From Bacteroidales bacterium (lineage in GTDB: Bacteria > Bacteroidota > Bacteroidia > Bacteroidales > GCA-2748055), in NCBI GenBank assembly GCA_016936975.1, contig JAFGWU010000005.1, positions 18,327 to 82,326 on the forward strand: a DNA stretch of 64,000 nt. The letters are read 5' to 3'. Shown here in pieces: positions 3,553 to 29,182 of this stretch. The translations under genes were made by a program, and so were the position numbers. Every line of letters starts with the position of its first letter. The first letter of the stretch is position 1. The notes beneath the pieces are model-generated. The model did not search any database. It was not told the origin of the DNA and was given only the letters and a program-made list of their open reading frames with translations.

Positions 3553-4581
3553 ATGGAAGATTCAATGGCGTCAACGGTATTAACCAGGGATGATTTCAAG
3601 CTGGGCGAACCGGTAAAGTGGTGTCCCGGATGCGGGGCCCATGCGGTTCTGGCAACCATTATGAATGTACTTCCCGAAACGGGGGTACGCAAGGAAGATG
3701 TCGTTTTTGTTTCAGGGATTGGCTGCTCTTCACGTTTCCCCTATTATATAAATACCTATGGTTTCCATGGCCTGCATGGCAGGGCGCCTGCCATTGCATC
3801 GGGGATTAAGGCCGCCAACCCGAACCTCAGTGTATGGATCGTTACGGGTGACGGTGATTCAATGGCCATTGGAGGGAATCATTTTATTCATATCATCCGG
3901 AGGAACATCAATGTAAATATCTTATTGTTCAATAATAAGATTTATGGTCTCACAAAGGGACAGTACTCTCCGACAACACCCAAGGGAAGCATCACCAAAA
4001 CCTCTCCCGACGGGACCATTGAAAATGCTTTTAAACCGGGTGAACTGGCTATGGGTGCCCAGGGATCGTTTTATGCCCGGGTTGTGGATACCGATCCCAA
4101 AATGATGAAGGAGGTATTTGCTGCTGCCGCACAGCACCAGGGAACCTCGGTCGTGGAGATTTTGCAGAACTGTGTCATTTTTGCCAACCAGGTGCATAAT
4201 GACATCACCGGAAAAGATGTCCGGGATGATAACCAGATCTATTTAAAGCACGGAGAACCTATGATTTTCGGTAAAGAACGGAACAGGGGACTTCGGATCA
4301 GGAATAATCATCTTGAGGTGGTTACCATTGGTGAAAATGGCGTAACCGAGCGGGATATTATGATTCATAATGCCCTTAATCCGGATGATACAGCACATTA
4401 TATGCTTGTGAGAATGACCCTTCCTGAGTTCCCGGTGGCAATGGGTGTGGTAAGGGCAGTGGAGACGACCGTATACGAATCACTGCTTTACGATCAGATA
4501 AAGCATGCTAAAAGTACGTCTAAGATAAAAAAGGTGGATGACCTGCTGCGAAGTGGAAATGTCTTTCAGATAGATAAGTGA
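3553..4581 (+). CDS. korB: 2-oxoacid:ferredoxin oxidoreductase, beta (TPP-binding) subunit
   Basis: 342 aa with WCPGCGAH and the TPP motif GDGDSMAIGGNH...NNKIYGLTKGQ. The stop TGA (4579-4581) overlaps the start of the next gene. Confidence 0.85.
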   Translation: MEDSMASTVLTRDDFKLGEPVKWCPGCGAHAVLATIMNVLPETGVRKEDVVFVSGIGCSSRFPYYINTYGFHGLHGRAPAIASGIKAANPNLSVWIVTGDGDSMAIGGNHFIHIIRRNINVNILLFNNKIYGLTKGQYSPTTPKGSITKTSPDGTIENAFKPGELAMGAQGSFYARVVDTDPKMMKEVFAAAAQHQGTSVVEILQNCVIFANQVHNDITGKDVRDDNQIYLKHGEPMIFGKERNRGLRIRNNHLEVVTIGENGVTERDIMIHNALNPDDTAHYMLVRMTLPEFPVAMGVVRAVETTVYESLLYDQIKHAKSTSKIKKVDDLLRSGNVFQIDK

Positions 4582-7500
4582 TGGACCCGATTCCGAGCTC
4601 TGAAGAGTATATCCAGAAGCTGATTGCTGAACGGAAAGAGCGCCTCAAGGAATTAAATTGCATCAACCAGACCACGCAGATTATCAAAGAGAGCAGCTCC
4701 GTTGAGCATACTCTCAGCCAGATTGTGATGATTTTGCCCGCTGCCTGGCAATACCAGGAAATGACCGTAGCCAGGATCTGGTTCGAAGGGAGGGAGTATG
4801 CCAGCCCGGGATTCAGGGAAAGCAAATGGAAACAGAGCCAGAAATTCGTTACCATCAACAACCAGAAAGGATCCATCGAAATTTACTATCTCAAAGAGTT
4901 TGCAGAGGCTGATGAGGGCCCTTTTCTGAAGGAGGAGCGGCAGTTGATCGATAATATTGCCAGCATTATTTCCAATTACCTGAACAGCCTCGAAGCTAAA
5001 AAAATCCTGAAAAAGTCCCTGGATGAAAGCATTGTTCGCGCAGAGGTCAGGGATTTCAAGAAACCGGAGGAGATCGATACGAAGCGTCTTCTGCAGAAAT
5101 TTATTAATAAGCAGAATGCTAACAGGGACATTTTTCATGACCTCATGCCTTACAGGGTCAGGGAGATTCTTCTCGTGGCAACCCTTTACGATGCCTACAG
5201 TATAGAAAAGGAGGGTCGGTTTTCCGAACATATCCTCGGGGAGTATCATCAGCTGAGCCTTACATCCATGCCGAGGGTGACTGGCGTTTCCAGCTATGAA
5301 GAGGCTATGGAACAGCTTAATTCCCGTCATTTCGACCTGGTAATCCTGATGTTCGGGAACGATAAAGTCACCCCGCTGAATATTGCCCGGAAGGTCAGGG
5401 AGGATTTTCCATACATTCCCGTTTATGTCCTTGTGAATAATGACCGGGAGGTAAACGCTTTCAAAGAGAATAACCTGACCCTTAACCGCATTGTCGATCG
5501 CCTGTTTGTATGGAACGGCGACTCCAGGGTCTTTTTTGCCATGGTGAAACACCTGGAGGATAGCGTTAATGTGGAGAGCGATACCCGGCTCGGGCTGGTA
5601 AAAGTGATCCTGCTGGTGGAGGATTCCGAAATTTATTATTCACGTTACCTGCCATTGCTTTACAGCAACGTTATTGAACAGACCAGCAGGATCGTGGAAG
5701 ACCCGGGAACCGATGAGATATTCAAAATTCTCCGCCTGAGGGCGAGACCCAAGATATTGCTCGCCAATAACTACGAGGAGGCCATCGATGTGGTCAAAAA
5801 ATATAAGGATTACCTGCTCTGCCTGATTACCGATATTGAATTCAACCGCGAAGGAAAAATGGATCCTGACGCCGGATTCAGGCTGGTGAATGAGGTCCGG
5901 AAAATTGCAGATGATTTGCCGACCATCATTCAGTCGGCAGATGTTCAGAATTCACACAGGGCTTACGAGCTGAAATCAACTTTCATCAATAAGAACAGTG
6001 AGACCCTCCTACAGGATATCCGGAATTTTATTATGTACCACCTGGGATTCGGCAGTTTTATTTACAGGGATTCCAGCGGAAAAAAGATTGCGGAGGCAAA
6101 GTCCCTGCAGGAATTTGAGAAGATGATCGCATCCATTCCGAGTGAATCGCTGGTTTACCATGGACGCAGAAATCATTTTTCATTATGGCTGACTGCGAGA
6201 GGGGAGATTCGGATCGCCAAACTGATCCATCCCATAAAGGTGACGGATTTCAAGACCCCGGATGAGTTCAGGAATTATCTCAGGTACATTATCAAAAAGT
6301 ACAGAAATGAGTCCAATACCGGGAGAATTGTAAATTTCGAAGAGAGTGCCCTGCTCGATGAATCAAATATTGTCAGTCTCGGAACCGGTGCCCTTGGAGG
6401 AAAGGGGCGGGGATGTGCGTTCATTAATACGCTCATCTATAATATGAATTTCCAGGAGATCATCCCGGATCTGAATATCCGTACACCGAGGACCAGCATT
6501 ATCGGCACGGATGAGTTTGATCTGTTCATCGAGCGTAATAACCTGCATGATATTGCACAGAGGGAGATTGATTATAACGGGATCAGGCAGCTCTTCCTGG
6601 AAAGTGATCTCTCCTATAACCTTGAGAAGCGGCTGAGGGAACTGGTTAAAAAGATCGATCAGCCGCTGGCGGTAAGATCATCAAGCCTGATGGAGGATTC
6701 CACCATGCAGCCATTTTCAGGAATATTCGACACCTACCTGGTTCCGAATAACCATCCGGAATTCAATGTCCGGTTCAGGCAGCTTTGCGATGCTGTAAAA
6801 CTGGTGTATGCATCGGTCTACTCCCCGCATTCGAAAGGTTACTTCAAAGCCATCCGCCATAATATTGAGGAGGAAAAAATGGCTGTGGTCATCCAGAACG
6901 TGGTGGGCAGGATTCATGATGACTATTTCTACCCCCATGTGAGTGGTACCGCCCAGTCCCATAATTTTTATCCGATTGCTTATGTTGAACCGGAGGATGG
7001 TTTTGCCCTGGCAGCATTGGGATTGGGACATTATGTGGTGAATGGAGAGAAGTCCTATATTTTCTCCCCTAAATACCCGGAGCTTGAAATCAATTCTCCG
7101 GCAGTGCTCTTCAGGGATTCCCAGGTTGAGTTCCTGGCCCTTGACCTGAAAAACACCGCAATGGATTTTTGCGGGAAAGGTACCGAAGCGAACCTCGCAA
7201 GGTTAACCCTTGCCGATGCAGAAAACCATGGGACATTGAAACACCTGGCATCGGTGTACGACGCGGAAAATAACAGGATTGATCCGGGTTTATCCTCGGC
7301 TGGTCCCAGGATACTTAACTTTGCGGATATCCTTAAGTACGGCTATACTCCGCTGGCCCATGCATTAAGGCTGGTGCTTGATGTGGGACAACAGGCGCTT
7401 GGATCACCGATAGAAATTGAATATGCCCTGGACCTCGATAAATCGGAGAACGGTAAGCCATCAATTTACCTGCTGCAGATCAAGCCGATGCTTGGAAGTG

Positions 7501-8069
7501 ATGCCGTTTTTTCCTTTGAGATGGACAGTATTAATCAGGAAGACCTTATTATCCTGGCTGAAAAGAGCATGGGCAACGGAAGGATTGATGATCTGACAGA
7601 TATTGTTTATGTGATTCCCGAAATATTTGATAAGCTTCGAACCAGGATGATTGCGCGGGAAATTGAGGAGTTTAATGCAGGGTTGGTACAGCAGGGAAGG
7701 CAGTATGTGCTGATAGGGCCGGGTCGGTGGGGAACAAAGGATCCTTTAATCGGACTTCCGGTCAACTGGTCCCAGATCTCCCATGCCCGCGTAATTATTG
7801 AAACGAGCCTCGAAAATTTTCCGCTGGATGCCTCACTGGGATCCCATTTCTTTCACAATGTCACATCAATGAATGTCGGCTACTTTAGCATTCAACACCA
7901 GTCAGGGTCCTCATTCATCCGGTGGGATGTGCTCGGCAGGCAAAAGGTGGTGAAGGAAACGGAATTTGTAAAGCACATCCGCTTTGACGAGCCGCTCTGC
8001 ATCCTGATGAACGGAAGAAAACGGATTTCTGTCGTCATGAGAAAGCCCTGCGGTGTAACGAAACAGTAA
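4578..8069 (+). CDS. Multidomain signalling protein: GAF-like sensor, pseudo-receiver, receiver, PPDK_N-type ATP-grasp (PEP/pyruvate-binding) and a conserved C-terminal module; function unknown
   Basis: 1163 aa. The N-terminus carries LKELNCINQ...IEIYYL...LKEERQLIDNIA (GAF-like). REC-like VILLVEDS...LITDIEF...IIQSAD...INK. ATP-grasp GGKGRGCAFIN, AVRSSSLMEDSTMQPFSGIFDTY, VVIQNVVG, EIEYALDL...YLLQIKP. C-terminus YVLIGPGRWGTKDP...GSHFFHN. No TSHAA swivel motif is visible and there is no room for a TIM-barrel domain. Confidence 0.6.
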   Translation: MMDPIPSSEEYIQKLIAERKERLKELNCINQTTQIIKESSSVEHTLSQIVMILPAAWQYQEMTVARIWFEGREYASPGFRESKWKQSQKFVTINNQKGSIEIYYLKEFAEADEGPFLKEERQLIDNIASIISNYLNSLEAKKILKKSLDESIVRAEVRDFKKPEEIDTKRLLQKFINKQNANRDIFHDLMPYRVREILLVATLYDAYSIEKEGRFSEHILGEYHQLSLTSMPRVTGVSSYEEAMEQLNSRHFDLVILMFGNDKVTPLNIARKVREDFPYIPVYVLVNNDREVNAFKENNLTLNRIVDRLFVWNGDSRVFFAMVKHLEDSVNVESDTRLGLVKVILLVEDSEIYYSRYLPLLYSNVIEQTSRIVEDPGTDEIFKILRLRARPKILLANNYEEAIDVVKKYKDYLLCLITDIEFNREGKMDPDAGFRLVNEVRKIADDLPTIIQSADVQNSHRAYELKSTFINKNSETLLQDIRNFIMYHLGFGSFIYRDSSGKKIAEAKSLQEFEKMIASIPSESLVYHGRRNHFSLWLTARGEIRIAKLIHPIKVTDFKTPDEFRNYLRYIIKKYRNESNTGRIVNFEESALLDESNIVSLGTGALGGKGRGCAFINTLIYNMNFQEIIPDLNIRTPRTSIIGTDEFDLFIERNNLHDIAQREIDYNGIRQLFLESDLSYNLEKRLRELVKKIDQPLAVRSSSLMEDSTMQPFSGIFDTYLVPNNHPEFNVRFRQLCDAVKLVYASVYSPHSKGYFKAIRHNIEEEKMAVVIQNVVGRIHDDYFYPHVSGTAQSHNFYPIAYVEPEDGFALAALGLGHYVVNGEKSYIFSPKYPELEINSPAVLFRDSQVEFLALDLKNTAMDFCGKGTEANLARLTLADAENHGTLKHLASVYDAENNRIDPGLSSAGPRILNFADILKYGYTPLAHALRLVLDVGQQALGSPIEIEYALDLDKSENGKPSIYLLQIKPMLGSDAVFSFEMDSINQEDLIILAEKSMGNGRIDDLTDIVYVIPEIFDKLRTRMIAREIEEFNAGLVQQGRQYVLIGPGRWGTKDPLIGLPVNWSQISHARVIIETSLENFPLDASLGSHFFHNVTSMNVGYFSIQHQSGSSFIRWDVLGRQKVVKETEFVKHIRFDEPLCILMNGRKRISVVMRKPCGVTKQ

Positions 8070-8083
8070 CATTACGATAGCTT

Positions 8084-11074
8084 ATGGTCAGGCAATACCA
8101 AAATTTAAATTATCCCACCATCGATTTCAGTCATACGGCTTTCAACAAGCTTATGCAAAACCGTATCCGAAGGGTATTGATTCTCAGCAGTAACTATGAC
8201 TTTTTCATGCTAGAGGAGGACGGACGTATCGATGAACAGATTTTCAATGAGTATGTGTCCCTGAATCTTCGCTACCCCCCGGTGTTCATAAAAGCCACCA
8301 ATGCCCGGGAGGCTTTCAGTATCCTGGAGAATGAAGATATTGACCTGGTCATAGAAATGCTGAACCTGGGGGATATCGATGCATTCAAACTGGCTAAGAA
8401 GATTAAGGAGAGCTACGAGAACATACCAATCGTTGTGTTAACCCATTTCAACCGGGAGGTGAGCCTGAGAATCCAGAATGAAGATCTCTCAGCAATCGAT
8501 TACGTCTTCTGCTGGCTGGGCAATGCCGATCTCCTGCTTGCCATCATTAAACTTCTGGAGGACAGGATGAATGCGAAGCATGATGTGGAGGAGGTGGGTG
8601 TCCAGGTCATCCTGCTTGTGGAGGATTCCATTCGTTACACCTCGACTTACCTGCCGGAATTATACCGCATCGTGCTCCAGCAATCGAGGGATTTTATGAA
8701 GGAGGCCCTGAATGAACACCAGAAGATGCTGAGGATGCGGGGACGTCCGAAGATACTCCTGGCAAAAACCTACGACGAAGCGTTGGATCTGTATGAAAAG
8801 TACAGGTTTAATATGCTTGGCATCATCTCCGATGTCAGCTTCAAGAGGGATAATAAACGGGACAAGGAGGAGAAGCTCGGTCTGCGTTTGATTGAGCGCA
8901 TCCGCAGGGAGGATCCCTTTATGCCGGCACTGCTCCAGTCTTCCGATCTGTCCAACGCGGCCATTGCCGGGGAGATGGGCGTGGGATTCCTGCATAAATA
9001 TTCTAAATCCCTGTCCATAGAACTGCGGAATTTTATCATGCGGAATTTTGCCTTCGGCGAATTCATATTCAGGGATCCATTGACCCTGGAAGAGGTTGAC
9101 CGGGCAGCGGATCTCCAGGCACTGCAGCATAAAATCCTCGATCTGCCGGATGATGTCCTGCTGTATCATGTCGGAAGGAACGACTTTTCGAAATGGCTCA
9201 ATGCCAGGGCTATTTTTCCAGTGGCCCAGCTTTTCAAATACGTGAAAGCGGAGGATTTCAATAACCTGGATGAGGTCAGAAGTTATATCTATGAGGCGAT
9301 TTCCAGCTTCAGGATCAGCAAGAGCAGGGGGATTATTGCAGAATTTGACAAGCACAGTTTCGATGAGTATACCAACTTCTCCCGGATCGGACAGGAGTCG
9401 ATCGGGGGTAAGGCCAGGGGCCTGGCATTTCTGAACAACGTCATTCAACAGCAGAAGCTGTTTAACAAATATCCCGATTGCATCATAACCGTTCCCCGGA
9501 CCGTTGTTTTGAGCACCGATATTTTCGATGATTTCATGGAGATGAACGATCTCTACAAAATCGGATTATCAGACAAGCCCGACGAAGAGATCCTTGAATA
9601 TTTTGTCAACGGGAGGTTGCCGGGATGGATCCACCAGGATCTCTATACCTTCCTGTCGGTTGTGAAGGCACCCCTGGCCATCCGCTCATCAAGCAAACTT
9701 GAGGATTCGCATTATCAACCGTTTGCAGGCATTTATTCCACCTATATGATCCCGGTTCTCGAGAATAACACAGCCAGAACCATGGAACTTCTTACCAACG
9801 CTATAAAGTCGGTTTATGCATCCGTTTATTTTAAAAGCAGTAAAGCTTATATTGAGGCAACCTCCAATGTGATTGATGAAGAAAAGATGGGAATCGTTCT
9901 GCAGGAGGTGTGCGGGACCCTCATCAATAACCTGTTTTTTCCGACCCTGTCGGGAGTCGCACGGTCCATCAATTTTTATCCAATCGCCCCGGAGAAGACA
10001 GGTGAGGGAATTGCCAAGATAGCCTATGGCCTCGGCAAATACATCATGGATGGGGGAGTCTCACTCAGGTTCTCGCCGAAATATCCGAAAAAGATCCTGC
10101 AACTATCCACTCCACGCCAGATGCTGCGCGATACCCAGAGATCCTTTTACGCCCTGAACACGGACGAACAGGGTTTCAAAATTTCAACGGATGATTCATT
10201 TAATCTGCTCAGGCTGAAAATAGATGAGGCCAGAGAGGACCCGGCTTTAAAGTATGTTATGTCGGTATACGACTATCAGTCAGATGTCGTAAGGGATGGA
10301 TTGAAATACGAAGGAAAGAAAATCGTTACCTTCTCCAGCATTCTTCAGCATAACCTGTTCCCCCTTCCCGCTATTCTGCAGGAACTGCTTGAGATCGGGC
10401 AGAAGGAGATGAACCTGCCAGTTGAGATAGAATTTGCGGTGAACCTGAATGTGCCGAAAGGTTCGCCATTCATCTTCAACCTGCTTCAGATCAGACCCAT
10501 TGTGGAGACCGAACAGGGTCCTGAGATTACCATTGCAGAATTGCAGCCTGAAGATACCATTCTCTATTCTGAGGCAGCACTCGGAAATGGACTGTTTAAA
10601 AATATCCGTGATATCGTGTATCTGCCCCCAGGCACATTTGACCCGGCCCGCAGCAAGGAGATCGCTGAGCAGATTGAGAAAATCAATGAGGAGATGAAAA
10701 AGCAGAACCGGACCTATGTGCTGATAGGTCCGGGGCGGTGGGGCTCATCCGATCCATGGCTGGGGATACCGATTAAATGGGGACAAATATCTGCGGCGAG
10801 GATCATTGTTGAATCCGGTCTCGAGGATTATCGCATCGACCCCAGTCAGGGGACCCACTTTTTTCATAATATGGTCTCTTTTCATGTGGGTTATATGACC
10901 ATCAATCCATACATCAGTGAGGGATTCTATAATCACGGGTACCTCGACCGTCTTCCTGCCTGTTCGGAGGATCATTTTGTGCGGCACGTGAGGTTCGACA
11001 GCGAGCTCATCATCAAGATCGACGGAAAGAGCAATAGAGGGGTGATCCTGAAACCGGGCAAAGGGAGTGTTTGA
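8084..11074 (+). CDS. Paralog of the preceding gene: pseudo-receiver, receiver, PPDK_N-type ATP-grasp and the conserved C-terminal module (no GAF-like N-terminus)
   Basis: 996 aa, collinear with residues ~170-1163 of the upstream protein. Matching motifs: VILLVEDS...IISDVSF...LLQSSD, FGEFIFRD, GGKARGLAFLN, AIRSSSKLEDSHYQPFAGIYSTY, EIEFAVNL...NLLQIRP, YVLIGPGRWGSSDPWLGIPIKWGQIS, GTHFFHN. Confidence 0.6.
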   Translation: MVRQYQNLNYPTIDFSHTAFNKLMQNRIRRVLILSSNYDFFMLEEDGRIDEQIFNEYVSLNLRYPPVFIKATNAREAFSILENEDIDLVIEMLNLGDIDAFKLAKKIKESYENIPIVVLTHFNREVSLRIQNEDLSAIDYVFCWLGNADLLLAIIKLLEDRMNAKHDVEEVGVQVILLVEDSIRYTSTYLPELYRIVLQQSRDFMKEALNEHQKMLRMRGRPKILLAKTYDEALDLYEKYRFNMLGIISDVSFKRDNKRDKEEKLGLRLIERIRREDPFMPALLQSSDLSNAAIAGEMGVGFLHKYSKSLSIELRNFIMRNFAFGEFIFRDPLTLEEVDRAADLQALQHKILDLPDDVLLYHVGRNDFSKWLNARAIFPVAQLFKYVKAEDFNNLDEVRSYIYEAISSFRISKSRGIIAEFDKHSFDEYTNFSRIGQESIGGKARGLAFLNNVIQQQKLFNKYPDCIITVPRTVVLSTDIFDDFMEMNDLYKIGLSDKPDEEILEYFVNGRLPGWIHQDLYTFLSVVKAPLAIRSSSKLEDSHYQPFAGIYSTYMIPVLENNTARTMELLTNAIKSVYASVYFKSSKAYIEATSNVIDEEKMGIVLQEVCGTLINNLFFPTLSGVARSINFYPIAPEKTGEGIAKIAYGLGKYIMDGGVSLRFSPKYPKKILQLSTPRQMLRDTQRSFYALNTDEQGFKISTDDSFNLLRLKIDEAREDPALKYVMSVYDYQSDVVRDGLKYEGKKIVTFSSILQHNLFPLPAILQELLEIGQKEMNLPVEIEFAVNLNVPKGSPFIFNLLQIRPIVETEQGPEITIAELQPEDTILYSEAALGNGLFKNIRDIVYLPPGTFDPARSKEIAEQIEKINEEMKKQNRTYVLIGPGRWGSSDPWLGIPIKWGQISAARIIVESGLEDYRIDPSQGTHFFHNMVSFHVGYMTINPYISEGFYNHGYLDRLPACSEDHFVRHVRFDSELIIKIDGKSNRGVILKPGKGSV

Positions 11075-11129
11075 TCCTTCTGCTAAACAATTTCCCATCA
11101 GAAGTGTTAATGATAAAAACATCATTAAC

Positions 11130-11864
11130 ATGAACAAAAGGAACTTCCTGAAACATACTGCGGCACTCGGGGCAGGTGCCCTTATTGCGCCCTCCCTTCT
11201 GACTTCTTTTACCATTCCCGGTGATCGCGTGAAGGCCGGGTTAACCGGGCAGACCGGATTTCAACAACCGGAACTGAATTATGCCTTTGATGCCCTGGAA
11301 CCCTATATCGACAGGAGAACCATGGAACTGCACTATAGCAAGCACCATGCCGGTTATACGCAGAAGTTAAATGAGGCACTCGGCCGTGAAGGAATTACAG
11401 AAGACAATATCCTGAGAATATTGGAGAACATTTCCTCTTACGGTGCGGCGGTAAGGAACAACGGAGGAGGATATTACAACCATAACCTTTACTGGAATTT
11501 CATGTCTCCCGAAGGAGGTGGAACCCCCCGGGGTAAAATCGGGAAAGCCATCAGGAAACAATTCGGTTCCTTTGAAGCTTTTAAGGAGCAATTTTCTTCC
11601 GTGGCCGCTTCCCATTTCGGATCAGGTTGGGCCTGGCTGATAGTTAAGCCCAATGGACAGCTCCAGGTGGTCAGTACGCCCAACCAGGATAATCCGTTAA
11701 TGGATGTTTCCGAGGTAAAGGGATCCCCGGTGCTGAACATCGATGTCTGGGAACATGCATATTACCTGAATTATCAAAATCAGCGTGCCCGCTATATCGA
11801 AGCCTACTGGAATATCATAGACTGGGATTATGTAGAGCACCTCTACCGGGAAGCGGTGCAGTAA
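11130..11864 (+). CDS. Fe/Mn-family superoxide dismutase with a Tat-like (KR variant) N-terminal signal
   Basis: SOD signatures HYSKHHAGYT, NHNLYW and DVWEHAYYL. A ~50-aa extension begins MNKRNFLKHTAALGAGALIAPSL. I prefer ATG 11130 to the ORF-track start 11067. Confidence 0.85.
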   Translation: MNKRNFLKHTAALGAGALIAPSLLTSFTIPGDRVKAGLTGQTGFQQPELNYAFDALEPYIDRRTMELHYSKHHAGYTQKLNEALGREGITEDNILRILENISSYGAAVRNNGGGYYNHNLYWNFMSPEGGGTPRGKIGKAIRKQFGSFEAFKEQFSSVAASHFGSGWAWLIVKPNGQLQVVSTPNQDNPLMDVSEVKGSPVLNIDVWEHAYYLNYQNQRARYIEAYWNIIDWDYVEHLYREAVQ

Positions 11865-11967: not shown

Positions 11968-13305
11968 ATGAATGTAGATAAAATAATGAATGACCTGGTG
12001 AAAAAGCATCCGGCAGAACCGGAATATCACCAGGCAGTAAGGGAGGTTCTTGAATCCATAGAGGAGGTCTACAATGAGAACCCGCAATTTGCCTCGGCCA
12101 ACATCGTTGAAAGGCTTATTGAACCCGACCGGATACTGACCTTTAAAGTGCCCTGGGCGGATGATCAGGGAGCGGTCCATGTCAATATCGGCTACCGGAT
12201 CCAGTTTAATAATGCCATTGGTCCCTACAAAGGCGGCTTGAGGTTTCACCCCAGCGTAAATCTCAGTATCCTCAAATTTTTGGGATTTGAACAGATCTTC
12301 AAGAACAGCCTCACCTCATTGCCCATGGGAGGTGCCAAAGGCGGTTCTGATTTTGATCCAAAAGGAAAGAGCAATGCGGAAATCATGCGTTTCTGCCAGG
12401 CATTCATGTTGGAGCTGTGGAATTTTATTGGTCCTGATACGGATGTCCCGGCCGGGGATATCGGTGTCGGAGGCAGGGAGATAGGATACCTTTACGGAAC
12501 CTACCGCAAACTGGCACGGGAGAATACCGGCGTTTTGACCGGAAAGGGTTTGAACTGGGGAGGTTCCCTTATCAGGCCGGAGGCCACCGGATTCGGATGC
12601 GTCTATTTTGCAAATGAAATGCTGTCTACCCGCGGGGAATCCTTCAAAGGAAAAAAAGTGGCGATTTCAGGATTTGGAAACGTGGCCTGGGGAGCCGCCA
12701 GCAAGGTAACCGAGCTGGGAGGGAAGGTAGTTACCATCTCGGGACCCGATGGTTATATTTATGATCCGGAGGGACTGTCAGGTGATAAGATTACCTACAT
12801 GCTCGAGCTGAGGGCCTCCAATGAGGATATTGTCTCTCCCTATGCCCTTGAATTTGAAAGTGGTGAATTTGTTCAGGGAAAGCGGCCATGGGAAGTTAAG
12901 GTTGATATTGCCTTACCATGTGCCACCCAGAATGAATTAAACAGGGAAGATGCAGAAAACCTCGTTAAGAATGGATGCATGTGTGTTTGTGAAGGGGCAA
13001 ATATGCCTTGCACTCCCGAAGCCATAGAGATCTTCCAGAGGAATGGCCTGTTATATGCCCCCGGGAAGGCAGCCAATGCAGGAGGGGTTGCAACATCAGG
13101 ACTCGAGATGGCCCAGAATTCAATGAAGATAAACTGGAGCAGGGCAGAGGTGGATGACCGGTTGCACCACATCATGAAACAGATACATAAGAACTGTGTG
13201 GATCACGGTACGAACGCTGAAGGATATGTCGATTATGTCAGGGGAGCCAATATAGCAGGTTTCCTGAAGGTTGCGAATGCCATGGTTGACCAGGGATTAG
13301 TTTAG
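11968..13305 (+). CDS. gdhA: NADP-specific glutamate dehydrogenase
   Basis: KGGLRFHPSVN, the catalytic loop PMGGAKGGSDFDPKGKS and the dinucleotide fold GFGNVAWG. Start moved to ATG 11968 (445 aa, MNVDKIMNDL...). Confidence 0.9.
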   Translation: MNVDKIMNDLVKKHPAEPEYHQAVREVLESIEEVYNENPQFASANIVERLIEPDRILTFKVPWADDQGAVHVNIGYRIQFNNAIGPYKGGLRFHPSVNLSILKFLGFEQIFKNSLTSLPMGGAKGGSDFDPKGKSNAEIMRFCQAFMLELWNFIGPDTDVPAGDIGVGGREIGYLYGTYRKLARENTGVLTGKGLNWGGSLIRPEATGFGCVYFANEMLSTRGESFKGKKVAISGFGNVAWGAASKVTELGGKVVTISGPDGYIYDPEGLSGDKITYMLELRASNEDIVSPYALEFESGEFVQGKRPWEVKVDIALPCATQNELNREDAENLVKNGCMCVCEGANMPCTPEAIEIFQRNGLLYAPGKAANAGGVATSGLEMAQNSMKINWSRAEVDDRLHHIMKQIHKNCVDHGTNAEGYVDYVRGANIAGFLKVANAMVDQGLV

Positions 13306-14592
13306 GCTCCAGAGGTATTCTTTGAATGCCTCATATTCGTTGCCTATTTTCAAAGCCTGTTTTTTTCTGCCGGAAAAAGCTGAGAGCCTTTCGGGAACGC
13401 GGCACGGACGACCGATCAGCGGATCAATTATTTCGGTGAATTTCGCCGGATGAGCCGTTTCAAGGAAGATGCCGGTTACACCCTCATGATGATTCATGTA
13501 GGTTCTGGCAGCCTGGTAACCTGTCGCTCCATGCGGGTCGCAAACATACCCCGTGTTTTTGTACACGGATTTAATAATCTCCCGGATCTCGTCATCGGTG
13601 TAAGAATAACCCTCTATATGATGGGTCACTCTTTCATGCTTTCCGCTGAAGATATCCAGGATCCTGACGAAATTGCTCGGGTTCCCCACATCCATCGCAT
13701 TGGCAATGGTTGTAACGGAGGGCCGGGGTACGAACACGCCGGATTGCAGATATTCAGGGACCACATCATTAATGTTGTTGGCCGACAGGAATTTGTGAAC
13801 AGGCAGTCCCATCTCCCTGGCAATCAGTCCGGCGGTCAGATTTCCGTAATTACCGCTGGGCACCGAGAAAAAGATATCTTTTCCGGGAACCTGGTTCCAG
13901 GCCCTGAAATAGTAGAACGACTGGGGCAGTAACCGTGCAAGGTTAATGGAGTTGGCCGACGTCAGGGTAAGCTTTTCCGACAGGTCAGGATCGAGGAAGG
14001 CCTTTTTTACGAGCCGCTGACAATCGTCGAAAGTGCCACTCACCTCAAGGGCTGTGATATTTTGTCCGAGCGTGGTAAATTGCTTCTCCTGCAGTGGGCT
14101 TACCATTCCGGAGGGGTACAGGACATGAACCCGTATTCCTTTTGCCCCCAGGAAACCGTTCGCCACCGCACTGCCAGTATCCCCTGAGGTGGCGACCAGA
14201 ACATGCACTTCTGCGGTCCGGTCGCGGGTAAAGTGCTCGAGCATCCTGGACATGAAACGGGCTCCGACATCCTTGAACGCCAGGGTGGGGCCATGGAACA
14301 ATTCGACCGTGTAGAGGTTATCTTCAATCTTCACCACAGGCGTATCGAAGTTTATGGCTTCGCCGACCAGCCGCACCAGGTCCGGCTGGGGAATATCCTC
14401 TCCAAAGAGCTTTTCTGAAATGATGATCCCGATCTCCGTCAGGTTGGAAGATTTGATGGCTTCCATTTCAGACCGTGTCAGAACCGGGAATCTCTGGGGC
14501 ATGTATAAACCGTTATCGGGTGCCAGCCCTTTGAAGACAGCCTCTTTCAGCGAACAGATGATGCTTTTGTTATTTGTGCTGTAGAATTTCAT
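13297..14592 (-). CDS. thrC: Threonine synthase
   Basis: PLP Lys motif TLAFKDVGARFM and SGDTGSAV. Start placed at ATG 14592 (MKFYSTNN...). The 83 upstream codons of the ORF-track entry overlap thrB. Confidence 0.9.
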   Translation of the reverse strand: MKFYSTNNKSIICSLKEAVFKGLAPDNGLYMPQRFPVLTRSEMEAIKSSNLTEIGIIISEKLFGEDIPQPDLVRLVGEAINFDTPVVKIEDNLYTVELFHGPTLAFKDVGARFMSRMLEHFTRDRTAEVHVLVATSGDTGSAVANGFLGAKGIRVHVLYPSGMVSPLQEKQFTTLGQNITALEVSGTFDDCQRLVKKAFLDPDLSEKLTLTSANSINLARLLPQSFYYFRAWNQVPGKDIFFSVPSGNYGNLTAGLIAREMGLPVHKFLSANNINDVVPEYLQSGVFVPRPSVTTIANAMDVGNPSNFVRILDIFSGKHERVTHHIEGYSYTDDEIREIIKSVYKNTGYVCDPHGATGYQAARTYMNHHEGVTGIFLETAHPAKFTEIIDPLIGRPCRVPERLSAFSGRKKQALKIGNEYEAFKEYLWSLN

Positions 14593-14599
14593 CTTTTTT

Positions 14600-15523
14600 T
14601 CATACGATTCGGCAGCCGGCCTCGCTGACCCTTGAAAGATATAAATTGCATGGAATCTGATGCCGCCTGAAATGATCAAGCTTGGCTCTCCCAACAGATT
14701 CGGCCAGTTCGGCTCCCCTGCAGAGGGAAAATACAGAAGGACCTGAGCCGGAAAGTCCCGTTCCGATCGATCCGGCTTCCAGCGCTTTTTCCCGTAACGA
14801 TTCAAATCCGGGAATCCGTGATGTGCGGAAAGGTTCGGCAAACAGGTCCCTGACTGACCGGCTGATCAAGGCGTAGTCGCTTGTTGCAAGTCCGGCTATC
14901 AGGCCTGCAAGGTTACCGCATTGTTCGAGGGCCGTTTTTAATCTGACCTGTTCGGGAATCAGTTTTCTGCTCTCCAGGGTTTTTATTTCAATTTCGGGAT
15001 GCACCAGGGCGCACCAGAGATCATCAGGGTAGGGGATGTGCTTGATGTCGAGGGGATCGTATCCACGTATCAGGACGAATCCGCCAAGCAGGGCCGGGGC
15101 AATATTATCAGCATGGATGGTTCCGCTGGAGACCAGCTCTCCCTCCATGGCAAACGGAATCAGGGATCTTATATCCAGCGGGGATCCGAGAAGTTCATTT
15201 ATTCCCACCACGGCTGCGGCGCAACTGGCCGCACTGGAACCAATCCCGCTTCCGGGTTTTATCTTCCCGGTAAAGATAATATCGTAATCATCGGAGGCTT
15301 TCAAATGATTCAGCAAAGAGCGAACCGCCACCGCTGCCGTATTGCGGTCGGGCTGAAGCGGGAGTTCAAATCCCGATTCATTGATGAGGGTTAATCCCCT
15401 GCCGTTGTTCCTCCGGATAACCAGCTCATCCCCCGGCTTCTCAAGTGCGAAACCGAGCAGATCGAAACCAGGACCTACATTAGAAACGGTTGCGGGACCG
15501 AATATTTTTATGCTGTCCTTCAT
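14600..15523 (-). CDS. thrB: Homoserine kinase
   Basis: GHMP-kinase motif PGSGIGSSAASCAA and N-terminal FGPATVSNVGPGFD. Located between thrA and thrC. Confidence 0.85.
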   Translation of the reverse strand: MKDSIKIFGPATVSNVGPGFDLLGFALEKPGDELVIRRNNGRGLTLINESGFELPLQPDRNTAAVAVRSLLNHLKASDDYDIIFTGKIKPGSGIGSSAASCAAAVVGINELLGSPLDIRSLIPFAMEGELVSSGTIHADNIAPALLGGFVLIRGYDPLDIKHIPYPDDLWCALVHPEIEIKTLESRKLIPEQVRLKTALEQCGNLAGLIAGLATSDYALISRSVRDLFAEPFRTSRIPGFESLREKALEAGSIGTGLSGSGPSVFSLCRGAELAESVGRAKLDHFRRHQIPCNLYLSRVSEAGCRIV

Positions 15524-15541
15524 TGGGATCCCTTCAGGAAT

Positions 15542-16204
15542 TTAATGATTCAGTTCATCAAAGATAGTCCTATTTATTTCATTTAATGAGGAAATGATCC
15601 GGTCGGCTGCTCCAAACCGCCTGTCTTTTGCCTCTCCGGGTCCCGGCATGGCAATCACCTTCATCCTGGCGGCCCTGGCAGCAATCACACCGTGAAAGGA
15701 GTCTTCAATGGCCAGGCAGGCGGAGGGATGGCATCCCAGGAGCTTCGCCGTATTCAAATACACATTGGGGTGGGGTTTTCCGTAAGGCTCATGCTCGGCA
15801 GAGTAGATCACTGAAAAGTATTTCCGTAATCCGAACCGGTCAAGAATAATATTGATCAGAAACATCGGGGAGGAAGATGCCAGGGCCACCGGCAGGTTCA
15901 ATTCCTTAAAGAACCTGATCGCCCTGTCGGCGCCCTCCATCAATCGCGCCTTAGTCCAGAACAGATCGATCATCCTTTTTTCATATTCTTCCACCAGGGA
16001 CTCCTGTGGCGGGTAACTTCCCGGAAATCTTGAATACCAGTAATGAACCATCTCGTCGGACCGCAATCCTTTGGTCTGGACCTGCATCTCTTCGGTAAGG
16101 GTGATTCCCAACTCCCTGAAGATATCGACTTCCGTCCTCTGCCAGAGTGGCTCCGAATCGGTGAGCACACCATCCATATCAAATATCACCCCTTTTATCA
16201 TCAT
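15542..16204 (-). CDS. HAD-superfamily phosphatase (beta-phosphoglucomutase/sugar-phosphatase-like subfamily)
   Basis: Motif I FDMDGVLTDSE, motif II LASSS and motif IV-like AIEDSFHGVIAA. 220 aa. Confidence 0.75.
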   Translation of the reverse strand: MMIKGVIFDMDGVLTDSEPLWQRTEVDIFRELGITLTEEMQVQTKGLRSDEMVHYWYSRFPGSYPPQESLVEEYEKRMIDLFWTKARLMEGADRAIRFFKELNLPVALASSSPMFLINIILDRFGLRKYFSVIYSAEHEPYGKPHPNVYLNTAKLLGCHPSACLAIEDSFHGVIAARAARMKVIAMPGPGEAKDRRFGAADRIISSLNEINRTIFDELNH

Positions 16205-16266
16205 TTATCGGTTTTATTATTCCGAATCCACAACAGCCTGAAAATTCCTCTTCTCCCCCCGGTTCA

Positions 16267-18693
16267 TTACAGGTTAGCCACGCGGATTATGTCGGCGAAC
16301 ACACCTGCTGCGGTAACATCGGCACCCGCTCCGTATCCTTTTACGATAAGGGGCAGTTCAAGATACCGGTCGCTGGTTATCATTATGATATTATTGCTAG
16401 CTTCAAGCGGGTAAGCCGGATGCGAAGGATCAACCGCGACCAGTCCCATCTTTCCTTTTCCTTCATTGATGGAGGCGATATACCGCCATTTTTTGCCCTC
16501 CGGTTCCAGCTTGATTCGTCGTTCTTCGAATTCCTTATCGAACCTCCTCAGTTTCTCCCAGAAATCCTCCAGGGTCCCTTCAAAAAGCGCATCGGGAAGA
16601 AAGGGCTCGATCCTGATATCGGTCTCTTCAAGCGGGTAGCCCGATTCCCTGGCCAGGATCAGCAATTTTCGCTTGACGTCTGTTCCGCTCAGGTCGACGC
16701 GCGGGTCGGGTTCGGAAAATCCCTTCTCCATGGCCATATGGACGGCCTTACTCAACGGGATCTCCCTGCTGATGACATTGAAGATGAAATTGAGCGTCCC
16801 GGAGACCACGGCATCCAGTTTCAATATCCTGTCGCCGCTTTTGATAAGGTCGTTAATGGTGCTTATTACAGGCAGACCGGCTGCAACGTTGGTTTCGAAA
16901 CTGAACTTCACGCCTTTCTGCAACGCTTTTTCCTTAAGATAGGCATATTGTTTGTAGGAAGAGCTGCAGGCTATCTTGTTGGCGGTTACCACTGAAACGT
17001 AACAATCGAATAGCCGGTCATACAGCTGAGCCACCTTCTCACTGGCCGTGCAGTCGATGAAGACCGAGTTGCGGAGATTGTTCTCACGAATCTGTTCCAC
17101 AAACCGGCCTGGATCCATTGGTTCACCTTTCTCCAGTTTTTCCTCGCAGGCAGATAGAGGTATCCCGTCGATATCAACAACCATTTTTTTACTGCTGGCC
17201 AATCCAACCAGGTTCACTTTCAGCTTCAGGGAATCCTCCAGTTTTTGTTGCTGGGACCGGATCTGTGATATCAGTTTCCTGCCGACATTTCCGACGCCGG
17301 CAAGATAAAGGTGCAGTTCCTTAAATTCTGAAAGGAAAAATCCTTCATGAATGGCATTCAAAGCTTTCTTCAGGCTATCCTGACCGATGACCACGGATAT
17401 ATTCAGCTCACTGGAACCCTGTGCCGTCGCTATAACGCTGATCCCGTTTCTGGCCAGTGATTTGAAAAGGGTGGCCGAGATTCCGGGGGTGTGTCTCATC
17501 TCCTCACCGACAATGGCTATAATGGAAAGGTTATTCAGAACCTCAATATCCATCTCCCTGCGATGCTCAATTTCGATGACAAACTCTTCGTTCAGGCCCT
17601 CCAGGGCAGCATTCGTATCCTGTGGATTTACGGCAAACGAGATCGTCATCTCGGACGAGGCCTGGGTTATAAGAATCACATTAACCCCTCTCTTTGCCAG
17701 GGCGGTGAATACCCGCATGGATGTACCGGTCTTTCCGACCATCCCGGTGCCCCTCACAGTGATCAGATCCACTTTATCGATGGAGGAGATGCCCTTGATA
17801 AGGTGCCCTCTCAATGGTGTCGCTTTCCCGGAAATGAGTGTTCCGGGATCATCGAGATTGAAGGTGTTGCGGACCCTGATGGGAATATGCTTCTGATAGA
17901 CCGGGGCCAGTGTGGGCGTATAGATTACCCTGGCTCCAAAATGCGATAGTTCCATGGCCTCTTCATAGCTCATGTTCTCTACCGTGTATGCTTTCGGGAC
18001 CATCTTGGGATCGGCTGTCATGAATCCGTTCACATCGGTCCATATCTCCAGGATTTCCGCATTCAGTGCTGCAGCCACAATGGCTGCGGTATAATCAGAA
18101 CCGCCGCGTCCGAGGGTGGTCGTCCTGCCATCCTGGTCCGAAGCAATAAATCCCGGCATGATCATGATCCCTGAGCGGCCCGGTAACTTGGTCCGCAGAA
18201 GATCGTTTGTAGTATTGAAATCAACCACCGCCTTACCAAAGTGGCTGTTTGTCCGGATCAAATCCCTGGAATCAACATATTCCGTGCCGGGGATGAAGCC
18301 CGTGATAATGGTTGCCGACAGACGTTCACCGAAGCTGAGCAGGACATCCAGTGTTTTATTACTGAGGTCCTGCAGCAGGAAAACACCCCGGAGGATTTCA
18401 TCGAACTCTTCCAGCATGTCTTCAACCTCTTTCAACAGGGGATCCTGCTGTATTTCATCAAACAGGTTCCTGACGGTGGCGGTGTGGCGCTGTTTAATGC
18501 TTTCGAATTTCTCCCTGTAAACGGGATCATGCCTGCCGGCCATCTCAGCCGTTTGAATAATCAGATCGGTAATACCACCGAATGCCGAAACGACGGCGAT
18601 GCTTCCCTCCTCGCAGGATTCCAGGATTTTTCTTACAATCCTGATGCTTTCAGGTGTTCCGACTGAGGTGCCGCCAAATTTCAATACCTTCAT
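16267..18693 (-). CDS. thrA: Bifunctional aspartokinase / homoserine dehydrogenase
   Basis: [12 protein letters not shown] kinase N-terminus, ACT-like middle region and a C-terminal homoserine dehydrogenase ([11 protein letters not shown]...[17 protein letters not shown]). Start moved to ATG 18693; the longer ORF would overlap fabD. Confidence 0.9.
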
Positions 18694-18751
18694 AAGCTCC
18701 TTATCATTTATTATTGAAGATCCCCCAGGGGATAAAGTTTTACGAACCGGT

Positions 18752-19630
18752 TCAGGATCCGGCACTGTAAACCGGTATTGCCGGATCGATCTTTTTAATC
18801 AGACCCTGGAGAACGTTGCCAGGACCAATTTCCGTAAAGGATGCAGCACCGGCGGCGATCATGTTTTTAACCGATTGCGTCCATTTCACCGGGGAGGTCA
18901 GCTGGGCAACCAGGTTCTTCCTGATGACTTCGGGATCGACTGAAGGTTGTGCGGTTGCATTCTGGTACACCGGGCAAACCGGTTTCTTGAAAGAGGCAGA
19001 GCGGATCGCATCCTCCAGTTCGGCTCTTGCCGATTCCATCAGCGGGGAATGAAAGGCCCCACCAACCTGGAGTTTAAGCGCCCTTTTTGCCCCGAGCTCC
19101 TTCAGTTTCTCAATGGCCAGATCGATACCCCGGAATGAACCTGAAATGACTATCTGGCCCGGACTGTTATAATTGGCCGGTACCACCACCTCATCGATGC
19201 CGGCACAAACCGTCTCCACCACCGCATCCTCCATCCCGATGATGGCCGCCATGGTGGATGGCTCTGTTTCACAGGCTTTCTGCATCGCCATGGCCCGCTT
19301 GGAAACCAGCATTAATCCGCTTTCAAATGACAGTGACCCATTTGCCACCAGGGCGGAAAACTCTCCCAGTGAATGACCCGCTACCATATCGGGATGAAAT
19401 TCCTCAAGGATCATGGCCAGAATGACCGAGTGGAGAAAGATGGCAGGCTGAGTGACCCTGGTCTGTTTGAGGTCCTCAGCAGTTCCTTCAAACATGACCT
19501 CCGTAATTCGGAATCCCAGTATCTGGTTTGCCTGTTCAAATAAAGTCCTTGCCTCGGGGTATTTTTCGAAAAGCTCTTTTCCCATTCCCGGGAACTGGGC
19601 ACCCTGTCCGGGAAATACATATGCTTTCAT
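18752..19630 (-). CDS. fabD: Malonyl-CoA:ACP transacylase
   Basis: [12 protein letters not shown] and the active-site motif [10 protein letters not shown]. 292 aa. Confidence 0.9.
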
Positions 19631-25905: not shown

Positions 25906-25930
25906 AAACAACTATTTTCAAGAATACAAA

Positions 25931-27112: not shown

Positions 27113-27117
27113 GCGAT

Positions 27118-27873
27118 ATGAAACAATTCAGCAACACATATATTTTCATCTTCTCCATGGTTATGGTGCTTATCGTAGCCGTTTTGCTCTCTTTCGTGGC
27201 GATGCAGCTCGGACCCCGACAGGAGATGAATGTTCAGAATGAACGAAAGCAGGACATCCTGCGTTCGGTTGGGAAGGCTGAGAAACTGAAGGAAGCCGAA
27301 GACAGGATAGCCTATATCGATGAGGAGTTCAGAACCTACATCAGCGATTCCTATGTGGTCAATTATGAAGGAGAAAGAGTGGATGCAGATGCATTTGCAA
27401 TTACCCTGCGGATCAGGGATGAGGTATCAGAAGCTCCGGAGGATCGTCTTTACCCGGTTTTTACCTATACAGACGAACAGGATGAGGTAATGTATATTGT
27501 GCCGGTTTACGGGAAAGGGTTGTGGGGGCCCATCTGGGGTTATGTTTCCTTTCATGCTGACATGAATACCATCAACGGCGCCGTGTTCGATCATAAGGGG
27601 GAAACACCCGGACTGGGAGCTGAGATAAACACCGATTGGTTTCAGGAAGCATTCAGGGGAAAAACGATTTTTGATGAAAAGGGAGCGTTTAAATCGATCA
27701 GGGTGGTGAAGGGTGGTGCCGATCCGGATGATCCGCATGGTGTGGATGCCATTTCCGGCGGAACCATTACTTCAAAGGGGCTTGAGGCCATGCTGAAGAA
27801 TTGCCTGTCGGGCTACATCAATCATTTTAAGATGCAGGGAAATCTGACATACGGAATGAATCATTCAATCTAA
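27118..27873 (+). CDS. nqrC: Na+-NQR subunit C
   Basis: Single N-terminal TM and an FMN attachment-type motif VDAISGGTITSKG. Confidence 0.9.
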   Translation: MKQFSNTYIFIFSMVMVLIVAVLLSFVAMQLGPRQEMNVQNERKQDILRSVGKAEKLKEAEDRIAYIDEEFRTYISDSYVVNYEGERVDADAFAITLRIRDEVSEAPEDRLYPVFTYTDEQDEVMYIVPVYGKGLWGPIWGYVSFHADMNTINGAVFDHKGETPGLGAEINTDWFQEAFRGKTIFDEKGAFKSIRVVKGGADPDDPHGVDAISGGTITSKGLEAMLKNCLSGYINHFKMQGNLTYGMNHSI

Positions 27874-27884
27874 ACTGAAGTTCT

Positions 27885-28532: not shown

Positions 28533-28547
28533 ACCTGTAATATAACC

Positions 28548-29165: not shown

Positions 29166-29182
29166 TTTGAAAATGGTTTAAA

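Follow-up and report, generated by a model that had tools for sequence, protein, structure and literature searches.

Several described systems resemble the genes considered here in part. In phosphoenolpyruvate (PEP) synthase (PpsA) and pyruvate, phosphate dikinase (PPDK), an N-terminal ATP-grasp domain (PPDK_N, Pfam PF01326) is combined with a swivel phospho-His domain and a PEP/pyruvate TIM barrel. Enzymes of the rifampin phosphotransferase (RPH) and PigC/RedH types do without the TIM barrel and have a swivel His domain in a C- or N-terminal position; in RPH it is C-terminal, and a rifampin-binding insert is present. Their make-up shows that a PPDK_N module is open to re-use alongside acceptor domains of other kinds (PMC4844700). 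In regulators of the PleD, CheB and RssB type, one or more N-terminal receivers govern a C-terminal catalytic module, and PleD combines a degenerate receiver with a phosphorylatable one. PknG with GarA/OdhI in Actinobacteria, as well as GlnE/GlnD, are signalling enzymes which are encoded beside, and act on, enzymes converting 2-oxoglutarate, glutamate dehydrogenase (GDH) or glutamine synthetase. We carried out a computational analysis of a 64,000-nt stretch of DNA (the window, whose positions are used as coordinates throughout) from a Bacteroidales bacterium (assembly GCA_016936975.1, contig JAFGWU010000005.1), in which two adjacent open reading frames, ORF1 and ORF2, encode receivers followed by a PPDK_N-type ATP-grasp. 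Based on the results below, we suggest, with a probability of about one half, that the two proteins are a receiver-gated pair of ATP-dependent phosphotransfer enzymes acting at the glutamate/2-oxoglutarate node.

The catalytic module of ORF1 and ORF2

The original prediction described ORF1 and ORF2 as collinear, and this was borne out by BLASTP, in which residues 185–1158 of ORF1 pair with residues 20–994 of ORF2 (37% identity and 59% positives over 980 residues, 11 gaps, E = 0). This is far beyond chance, and all the motifs quoted in the prediction were found in the two proteins. ORF1, which starts at GTG 4578 or ATG 4581 (1162 aa counted from the ATG), has an extra N-terminus of 185 residues that ORF2 does not have. 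The two genes are a paralogous pair belonging to an uncharacterised signalling-enzyme family.

Based on Pfam annotation, both proteins contain the PPDK_N domain (Table 1). The GGK loop, R534-SSS-E540-D541, E781/E783 and Q802 (ORF2 numbering) did not vary among 49 relatives with pairwise identities below 50%. In its GGK loop, RSS..ED motif, ExE Mg ligands and LQxR/K motif, the domain is homologous to the N-terminal ATP-grasp of PpsA/PPDK. A family profile matched RPH and PEP synthase structures in register (E 1e-12 to 1e-9), within the ATP-grasp only, and the best-scoring solved relatives, 5hv6 and 5fbs (E 1e-12), are of the RPH and PigC/RedH type. Judged by these residues, the ATP-grasp retains all of its nucleotide- and Mg-binding positions and therefore should bind and cleave ATP.

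Some database records name family members "phosphoenolpyruvate synthase" or "pyruvate, phosphate dikinase", and the PPDK_N domain itself agrees with such names. However, no match to the swivel domain PF00391 was found by Pfam in ORF1 or ORF2, even at E ≤ 10 in the tail, nor was there a match to the TIM barrel PF02896, and beyond the ATP-grasp there are only about 190 residues. NCBIfam models for PEP synthase scored 22–52 bits (the best 51.9 against 883) versus cut-offs of 598–1063, and those for RPH and PigC/RedH scored 20–52 bits versus cut-offs of 999–1350, in each case over part of the ATP-grasp only. In addition, the C-terminal domain (CTD) is unrelated to the dikinase domains in sequence and predicted fold. 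Because both the swivel domain and the TIM barrel are missing, ORF1 and ORF2 are not PEP synthases or PPDKs, as had been proposed, and the chance that they are ordinary enzymes of this kind is negligible; PpsA/PPDK is ruled out by Pfam and NCBIfam alike. The profile scan gave what had been expected of it, namely Response_reg and PF01326 without PF00391 and PF02896. The architecture differs from that of PpsA/PPDK in two further respects: about 430–620 residues of receiver or sensor domains lie ahead of the ATP-grasp, and an unrelated 190-aa domain lies behind it. From RPH and PigC/RedH the two proteins are set apart by the lack of a detectable swivel His domain, only the ATP-grasp being shared, and from RPH also by their receivers and by the predicted fold of the CTD.

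The CTD had no match in Pfam, NCBIfam or, by profile search, the PDB. AlphaFold2 models were obtained for the isolated linker domain (see below) and the isolated CTD of ORF2. The CTD was modelled as an alpha/beta fold (predicted local distance difference test (pLDDT) 85.7; predicted template modelling score 0.86). Comparison of the model with the PDB using Foldseek gave nothing at E ≤ 0.001, the best match had a template modelling (TM) score of 0.29, and no PPDK, PEP synthase, enzyme I or RPH chain was among the 50 matches listed; the fold search proposed earlier for the tail thus led to no characterised family. The CTD residues listed in Table 1 for ORF2 were invariant in the 49 divergent relatives. 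In the model they lie in a Gly-rich loop past a strand (GPGRWG), at the end of the next strand (IIVE) and at the start of a helix (G-[ST]-H-F-F), an arrangement that looks like an active site.

A search of the whole library with a hidden Markov model of the CTD gave 2255 clusters at 50% identity. In the cases examined, the CTD always stands C-terminal to PPDK_N, and PPDK_N-CTD is therefore the conserved core of the family, to which receivers, an ORF1-type N-terminal domain or a C-terminal Pol-beta-type nucleotidyltransferase are added depending on the lineage. The CTD is thus a new conserved domain with a confidently modelled fold. The earlier statement that the tail holds no swivel His domain stands, but this tail is a conserved domain of its own with an invariant His, which would allow a phospho-His step. 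Two other identities were considered for it. A divergent swivel His domain received no support from Pfam at E ≤ 10, PDB profile search, AlphaFold2 with Foldseek, or NCBIfam. A Pol-beta nucleotidyltransferase was rejected, since the NTP_transf_2 domain of some partner proteins sits past the CTD and is not equivalent to it.

Receivers, sensor-like domain and OrfY-like domain

The first receiver (REC1) had been predicted to be a pseudo-receiver, and the acceptor position agrees with this. In a PDB alignment, E91 of ORF2 lies opposite the phospho-Asp of CovR/VicR-type receivers; the position is occupied by Leu in ORF1 and by T, I, L, S or A elsewhere, and Asp was found in 0/49 divergent relatives. 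Since the acceptor is never Asp, REC1 is a pseudo-receiver. It also has a strongly conserved motif of its own, Y38-D39-x-F41-x2-E44-x2-G47-R48-x2-E51 (ORF2 aa 24–60, window ~8153–8263, with an equivalent in ORF1), which occupies the spot of the acidic pocket in a normal receiver. The pair E159-D160, which closes the pseudo-receiver, is invariant family-wide.

The second receiver (REC2) has the canonical look ascribed to it at first sight, with the acidic pair, phospho-acceptor Asp, Thr/Ser and Lys in correct order and spacing. The corresponding residues E180, D181, D250, S286 and K305 (ORF2 numbering) were invariant in 234 orthologues of both paralogues and 82–98% conserved in the 49 divergent relatives, including D250 in 44/49, K305 in 46/49 and S/T286 in 48/49. 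Pfam reports a second weak Response_reg stretch for this region. Compared with PleD-, CheB- and RssB-type proteins, REC2 is divergent and carries an insertion of about 25 aa after beta-1. The conservation of its residues suggests that ORF1 and ORF2 qualify as response-regulator-type proteins.

No Pfam match was found for the N-terminal domain of ORF1, and a PDB search gave only a faint likeness to the Nlh2 GAF domain, in its first helix (4g3v, E 0.33). The same domain type also heads a PPDK_N-CTD-nucleotidyltransferase partner protein of the family (locus L090, described below; hhalign 99.4%, E 2e-21).

The region between REC2 and the ATP-grasp was previously called a linker domain with conserved motifs. 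The motif region is present; it is better described, however, as an OrfY/DUF5752-like domain, for which three weak but concordant lines speak. Firstly, the isolated ORF2 domain matched Pfam DUF5752 (PF19027) with E 1.3e-4 and 21.9 bits against a cut-off of 23; some orthologues have a precomputed PF19027 match, and two relatives score above the cut-off. Secondly, a family profile of the linker matched PDB 4cso (OrfY of Thermoproteus tenax) with E 0.065, with the common motif ES.xYH..GRNDFSxWL. Thirdly, for the AlphaFold2 model (pLDDT 75), 4cso was the top and only meaningful Foldseek match (probability 0.99, root-mean-square deviation 2.2–2.3 A over 83 columns, query-normalised TM 0.47), with an E-value of 0.2 that is not significant alone. 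The likeness thus concerns both motif and fold, but the match covers one repeat of the two-repeat OrfY and the individual scores are sub-threshold. To our knowledge, OrfY has no established function.

In glucan water dikinases, the His domain precedes the ATP-grasp, and His362 of the linker was considered as a catalytic His of this kind. This candidate was weakened by conservation, H362 being present in 39/49 relatives versus H925 of the CTD, which is invariant in 49.

Gene neighbourhood

Three samples of loci were compared. The clade sample comprised 80 related loci with an ORF2 identity of 61–73%, and the denominators are the loci with enough DNA. The distant sample comprised 13 contexts with members of 30–45% identity. 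The third, unbiased sample consisted of metagenome contigs found with a CTD motif pattern, which within the window matches ORF1 and ORF2 only; it comprised 117 loci with 30–61% identity to ORF1 or ORF2.

Association with gdhA, one of the links claimed for the locus, proved to extend over the whole family. GDH lies within 2.5 kb downstream in 20/51 clade loci and is adjacent in 7/13 distant contexts. In the metagenome sample it was found within 500 nt in 9/26 loci with both flanks informative and in 29/84 with one flank. Among 133 immediate-neighbour ORFs, ELFV dehydrogenases were by far the most frequent (36), followed by calcineurin-like phosphoesterases (7), with all other families at 4 or fewer. 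Such an enrichment greatly exceeds what chance would give, since a genome of thousands of genes has only one to a few for GDH.

The linkage to korAB, also claimed, holds within one Bacteroidales clade: korB is upstream in 50/61 informative loci, korA is syntenic in 48/61 and the racemase gene is upstream in 40/61, the order racemase-korA-korB-ORF1-ORF2 being conserved. Outside this clade it disappears; korAB is absent from the distant contexts, and korB was found in 3/117 metagenome loci. GDH is therefore the recurrent genomic partner of the family, and korAB is a clade-specific addition. The gene for superoxide dismutase (SOD), which had been counted to the same node, lies within 1.5 kb in 9/51 clade loci and is not among the 25 commonest neighbour families of the metagenome census. 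Both korAB and SOD are thus ruled out as family-wide partners, and SOD is probably a clade-level neighbour outside the ORF1/ORF2 system. The SOD (window 11067–11864) bears a Tat signal (MNKRNFLKHTAALGAGA...) and is predicted to be exported.

At the junctions of the window itself, the sequence reads as claimed. The korB 3′ end is ...AAG TGA, and the ATG of ORF1 shares its A (TGATG, 4579–4583); ORF2 starts 14 nt beyond the ORF1 stop at 8069. Conserved translational coupling to korB is, however, ruled out by the related loci, in which the korB/ORF1 gap has a median of about 100 nt and an overlap occurs in 1–2 of about 40. The neighbours korA, korB, Tat-signal SOD and GDH were confirmed by Pfam with a correction of one start codon: the SOD gene probably starts at ATG 11131 (MNKRNFLK...), 57 nt past the ORF2 stop, and not at GTG 11067, which overlaps ORF2. 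The gdhA start is probably ATG 11969. From korA to the end of gdhA, no terminator-like site was found on the plus strand except a weak one inside ORF2, which counts in favour of the proposed system. A sigma-70 promoter scan, which does not cover Bacteroidota promoters, was uninformative (20 sites versus 19.6 expected), and no Rfam match to a structured RNA or riboswitch was obtained across the whole window.

The orientation of GDH bears on the possibility that the proteins are transcriptional regulators of gdh and neighbouring genes, in which the receiver and OrfY-like domain would bind DNA and the ATP-grasp/CTD would be an ATP or ligand switch, functionally similar to NtrC. In several lineages gdh is divergent from the family gene (8/32 adjacent cases, plus loci L088 and L167), a classic regulator-target layout. 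Receiver domains are present, and the depositors of 4cso labelled OrfY a transcription factor. On the other hand, 24/32 adjacent GDH genes lie on the same strand in an operon-like manner, Pfam recognises no DNA-binding domain, and OrfY is not known to bind DNA. The strictly conserved catalytic residues of the ATP-grasp and CTD point to enzymatic chemistry, and we consider regulation by DNA binding decidedly unlikely.

The same neighbourhood could also fit a receiver-regulated metabolic dikinase that acts on a small molecule of the 2-oxoglutarate/glutamate node, such as a 2-oxoacid or an amino-acid derivative; its substrate would be bound by the CTD. PPDK_N enzymes are generally known to phosphorylate pyruvate, rifampin and glucans, the genes are embedded among racemase, korAB and gdhA, and calcineurin-like phosphoesterases are the second commonest neighbours (7/133). 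We hold a metabolic role to be rather unlikely, because the known pathways at this node have no need of such a step, and because two receivers, sensor domains, nucleotidyltransferase-bearing partners and paired paralogues typify signalling proteins. The phosphoesterase genes (Metallophos), which rank second in the census of loci L094–L213 and also occur in L090 and L093, could encode an opposing phosphatase.

The position beside GDH recalls PknG–GarA/OdhI and GlnE/GlnD. This analogy is functional only; PknG, GarA and GlnE have no homology to the ORF1/ORF2 family. Neither an ATP-grasp/PPDK_N output of PleD-, CheB- or RssB-type regulators nor the combination of REC, OrfY-like domain, PPDK_N and CTD and its link with GDH was found described in the literature searched, the full-text coverage of which omits most subscription journals.

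Family distribution and pairing of the genes

More than 8000 homologues were found for ORF2, of the same length and mainly from metagenome-assembled genomes (MAGs) of Bacteroidales, and about 3800 for ORF1, roughly 1160 aa long and likewise from Bacteroidales MAGs. The family members are named "response regulator", "PEP/pyruvate-binding domain-containing protein", "phosphoenolpyruvate synthase" or "pyruvate, phosphate dikinase". The family occurs in Bacteroidota, in MAGs of Fibrobacterota and Myxococcota, and in cultured human-gut Phocaeicola and Bacteroides; the taxonomy given by cluster names was sparse. On one gut contig, an adjacent gdh is divergent from the gene for a 988-aa member, which shares 98% identity with a protein of Phocaeicola plebeius and 91% with one of Bacteroides caecicola and retains all the key residues.

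Tandem or paired PPDK_N-CTD genes were found in 65/71 clade loci, with ORF1 upstream of ORF2, and in 7/13 distant contexts. Three proteins of 1523–1654 aa (P0242, P0252 and P0262), each from a 50%-identity cluster of its own, appear to contain two fused PPDK_N-CTD modules, although a gene-calling artefact is possible. Such apparent fused proteins give support of the Rosetta-stone type to the idea that the pair works together. A further protein, P0243, contains the ORF1 N-terminal domain twice.

Other arrangements of paired genes were also observed. Loci L090 (10068–13385) and L091 (10094–13270), which belong to two distant lineages, have the order gdh, REC-type member and a partner protein of 1058–1105 aa. 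The partner consists of an ORF1-type N-terminal domain, PPDK_N, CTD and a C-terminal Pol-beta-type nucleotidyltransferase (NTP_transf_2), and so recalls GlnE and GlnD, which bear a domain of this type too. The distant Fibrobacter-type members share an overlap of their stop codon with a NarL-type response regulator gene: in loci L082 (12164–12826) and L085 (12139–12801), a 220-aa NarL-type REC-GerE gene overlaps or abuts the stop of members of 1378–1387 aa of the Fibrobacter sp. MAG type, and gdh and the genes for a ferredoxin and a sigma-54 activator come next in L082. In L088 (GCA_026416095.1, a Bacteroidales MAG), a 674-aa Fe-S/CCG heterodisulfide-reductase-like protein is encoded between the ORF1-type and ORF2-type genes, and two gdh genes and a gene for a Crp-family regulator stand at the flanks. 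This arrangement hints at a redox input.

The invariant CTD His and the pairing of the genes may be explained by a non-canonical phosphorelay, in which PPDK_N-CTD is an ATP-driven autokinase and the CTD His (H925 in ORF2, H1089 in ORF1) feeds the Asp of a receiver, either its own, that of its partner or that of a separate response regulator. The module would then be a new transmitter in place of the HisKA/HATPase core, and no Pfam match to DHp or GHKL ATPase domains (HisKA/HATPase_c) was obtained in ORF1 or ORF2. It is generally accepted that all characterised PPDK_N enzymes use a phospho-His carrier (PMC4844700), and the CTD His is invariant in 49 relatives. REC-less sensor-PPDK_N-CTD proteins pair with REC-bearing members, and the REC-GerE gene overlapping the stop codon of a Fibrobacter-type member could supply a separate acceptor. 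As the original prediction also noted for the window, there is no histidine kinase among its 20 largest other ORFs, and none occurs among the 25 commonest families in the census of 133 immediate-neighbour ORFs; orphan response regulators are common, however, and the absence of a nearby kinase is therefore weak evidence. What makes a phosphorelay unlikely is that N-terminal receivers are in the usual place for an input and not for a phospho-acceptor output, that the REC-bearing proteins themselves hold the full catalytic module, and that the modelled CTD does not resemble swivel or DHp domains in structure.

Proposed mechanism

Based on the above results, we propose the following scheme for the receiver-gated phosphotransfer pair. 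Each protein would consist of a degenerate receiver, a phosphorylatable receiver (Asp418 in ORF1, Asp250 in ORF2) and an OrfY/DUF5752-like helical domain, with the PPDK_N-type ATP-grasp and the CTD as the catalytic output module. Phosphorylation of REC2 would gate ATP-dependent phosphoryl transfer. The CTD may serve, probably by means of its invariant His, as the phospho-carrier or acceptor-binding site and so stand in for the swivel His domain and TIM barrel of the dikinases. The two paralogues presumably act together, ORF1 bringing the additional N-terminal sensor domain. The system would act on the 2-oxoglutarate/glutamate node, with the activity or expression of GDH as the leading candidate target suggested by gene neighbourhood. 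In the Bacteroidales clade, the genes appear to have joined a racemase-korAB-ORF1-ORF2-(sod)-gdhA cluster.

Several observations weigh against this scheme. About two thirds of the family loci have no adjacent GDH, and some members stand alone among unrelated genes. The acceptor Asp of REC2 is absent in 5/49 relatives, and REC2 is recognised weakly by profiles, its matches in the PDB profile search being all receivers at E 0.03–0.8 (RssB, E 0.03). A cognate kinase was not identified in the window or the neighbour data. The CTD loop with the invariant His was modelled with lower confidence (pLDDT ~63–66).

A bolder form of the idea is that PPDK_N-CTD is a new protein-phosphorylating machine with a CTD phospho-His charged by the ATP-grasp, operating either as a GHKL-free two-component transmitter or as a receiver-gated kinase that modifies GDH covalently and in some lineages has nucleotidyltransferase-bearing partners. 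We regard this as doubtful.

Features of the locus and further content of the window

The coordinates of the genes and domains are given in Table 1.

Table 1. Genes and domains of the korAB-ORF1-ORF2-gdhA region (window coordinates; residues numbered in the respective protein).
Feature	Position	Strand	Basis or remark
Asp/Glu racemase-family gene, 269 aa	656..1465	+	Pfam Asp_Glu_race, E 5e-14; upstream of korA in most clade loci
korA-like 2-oxoacid:ferredoxin oxidoreductase alpha subunit, 619 aa	1669..3528	+	Pfam POR, POR_N, PFOR_II
korB-like TPP-binding beta subunit, 342 aa	3553..4581	+	Pfam TPP_enzyme_C, E 8e-31; stop overlaps ORF1 start
ORF1, 1162 aa: N-terminal sensor-like domain, pseudo-REC, REC, OrfY-like, PPDK_N ATP-grasp, CTD	4581..8069	+	
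ORF1 N-terminal sensor-like domain, aa 1–185, motifs ELxCIN, AWQY, EGPFLxEER	4581..5135	+	
ORF1 pseudo-receiver, aa ~190–330, Leu at acceptor position (DLVILM)	5148..5570	+	Pfam Response_reg below cut-off, E 1.5e-5; collinear with ORF2 REC1
ORF1 receiver 2, aa 333–480, acidic pair in VILLVEDS, predicted phospho-acceptor D418, QS, K	5577..6020	+	
ORF1 OrfY/DUF5752-like domain, aa ~480–600, YH527GRRNHFSLWL	6018..6380	+	Faint Pfam DUF5752 match at 506–579; alignment with ORF2 domain
ORF1 PPDK_N-type ATP-grasp, aa 621–970	6441..7490	+	Pfam PF01326, E 7.7e-35
ORF1 CTD, aa 972–1162, GPGRWGT, GSH1089FFHN	7494..8066	+	Alignment; CTD motif pattern match at 7728–7859
ORF2, 996 aa: pseudo-REC, REC, OrfY-like, PPDK_N ATP-grasp, CTD	8084..11074	+	
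ORF2 pseudo-receiver, aa ~24–165, Glu91 at acceptor position (DLVIEM)	8153..8578	+	Pfam Response_reg, E 2.6e-10 at 69–148; PDB alignment
ORF2 receiver 2, aa 165–312: E180, D181, D250, S286, K305	8576..9019	+	Residue conservation
ORF2 OrfY/DUF5752-like domain, aa 303–432, YH362VGRNDFSKWL	8990..9379	+	Pfam, PDB profile, AlphaFold2/Foldseek
ORF2 PPDK_N-type ATP-grasp, aa 438–819: G441-G442-K443, R534-SSS-E540-D541, E781/E783, Q802	9395..10540	+	Pfam PF01326, E 1.9e-33
ORF2 CTD, aa 806–996: R885, G887, D890, G894, E910, S921, G923, H925, F926, N929	10499..11071	+	
Fe/Mn superoxide dismutase with Tat signal	11131..11864	+	Pfam Sod_Fe_N, Sod_Fe_C, TAT_signal
gdhA, glutamate dehydrogenase	11969..13305	+	Pfam ELFV_dehydrog, E 1e-90

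The region 13297–18765 is rich in genes of amino-acid metabolism. A threonine synthase gene (13297–14841, minus strand) lies immediately downstream of gdhA on the opposite strand, followed by two further minus-strand ORFs (14600–15523 and 15542–16204) and a gene for a bifunctional aspartokinase/homoserine dehydrogenase with ACT domains (16267–18765, minus strand). Further on, a cluster for an Nqr-type Na+-translocating NADH:quinone oxidoreductase was found at 24553–31451 on the plus strand, comprising NqrA, an NQR2/RnfD-family subunit, an NqrF-like Fer2/FAD/NAD protein and then ApbE. The plus-strand gene at 32006–34414 encodes an 802-aa polypeptide with E1_dh, Transket_pyr and Transketolase_C domains, which corresponds to a fused alpha/beta 2-oxoacid dehydrogenase E1-like protein.

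Significance

The family is large (more than 8000 homologues; 2255 CTD clusters) and spread over several phyla, yet databases name its members "response regulator", "PEP synthase" or "pyruvate, phosphate dikinase". With PEP synthase excluded, an annotation can be corrected that has been passed on between records and that distorts metabolic reconstructions of gluconeogenesis in anaerobes. The broad and strong linkage to GDH marks the family as a candidate for regulating ammonium assimilation and glutamate catabolism. Control of the 2-oxoglutarate/glutamate node is poorly understood in gut and sediment Bacteroidales, and in the clade studied here a linkage to 2-oxoglutarate:ferredoxin oxidoreductase is added. 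Since relatives occur in cultured gut Phocaeicola, the idea of a regulator is testable. If the proposed mechanism is true, the dikinase ATP-grasp would gain a role in signalling, and the CTD would be a newly defined, conserved catalytic domain; a GDH-modifying kinase, were it to exist, would give Bacteroidota and other anaerobes the post-translational control of ammonium assimilation that is so far missing.

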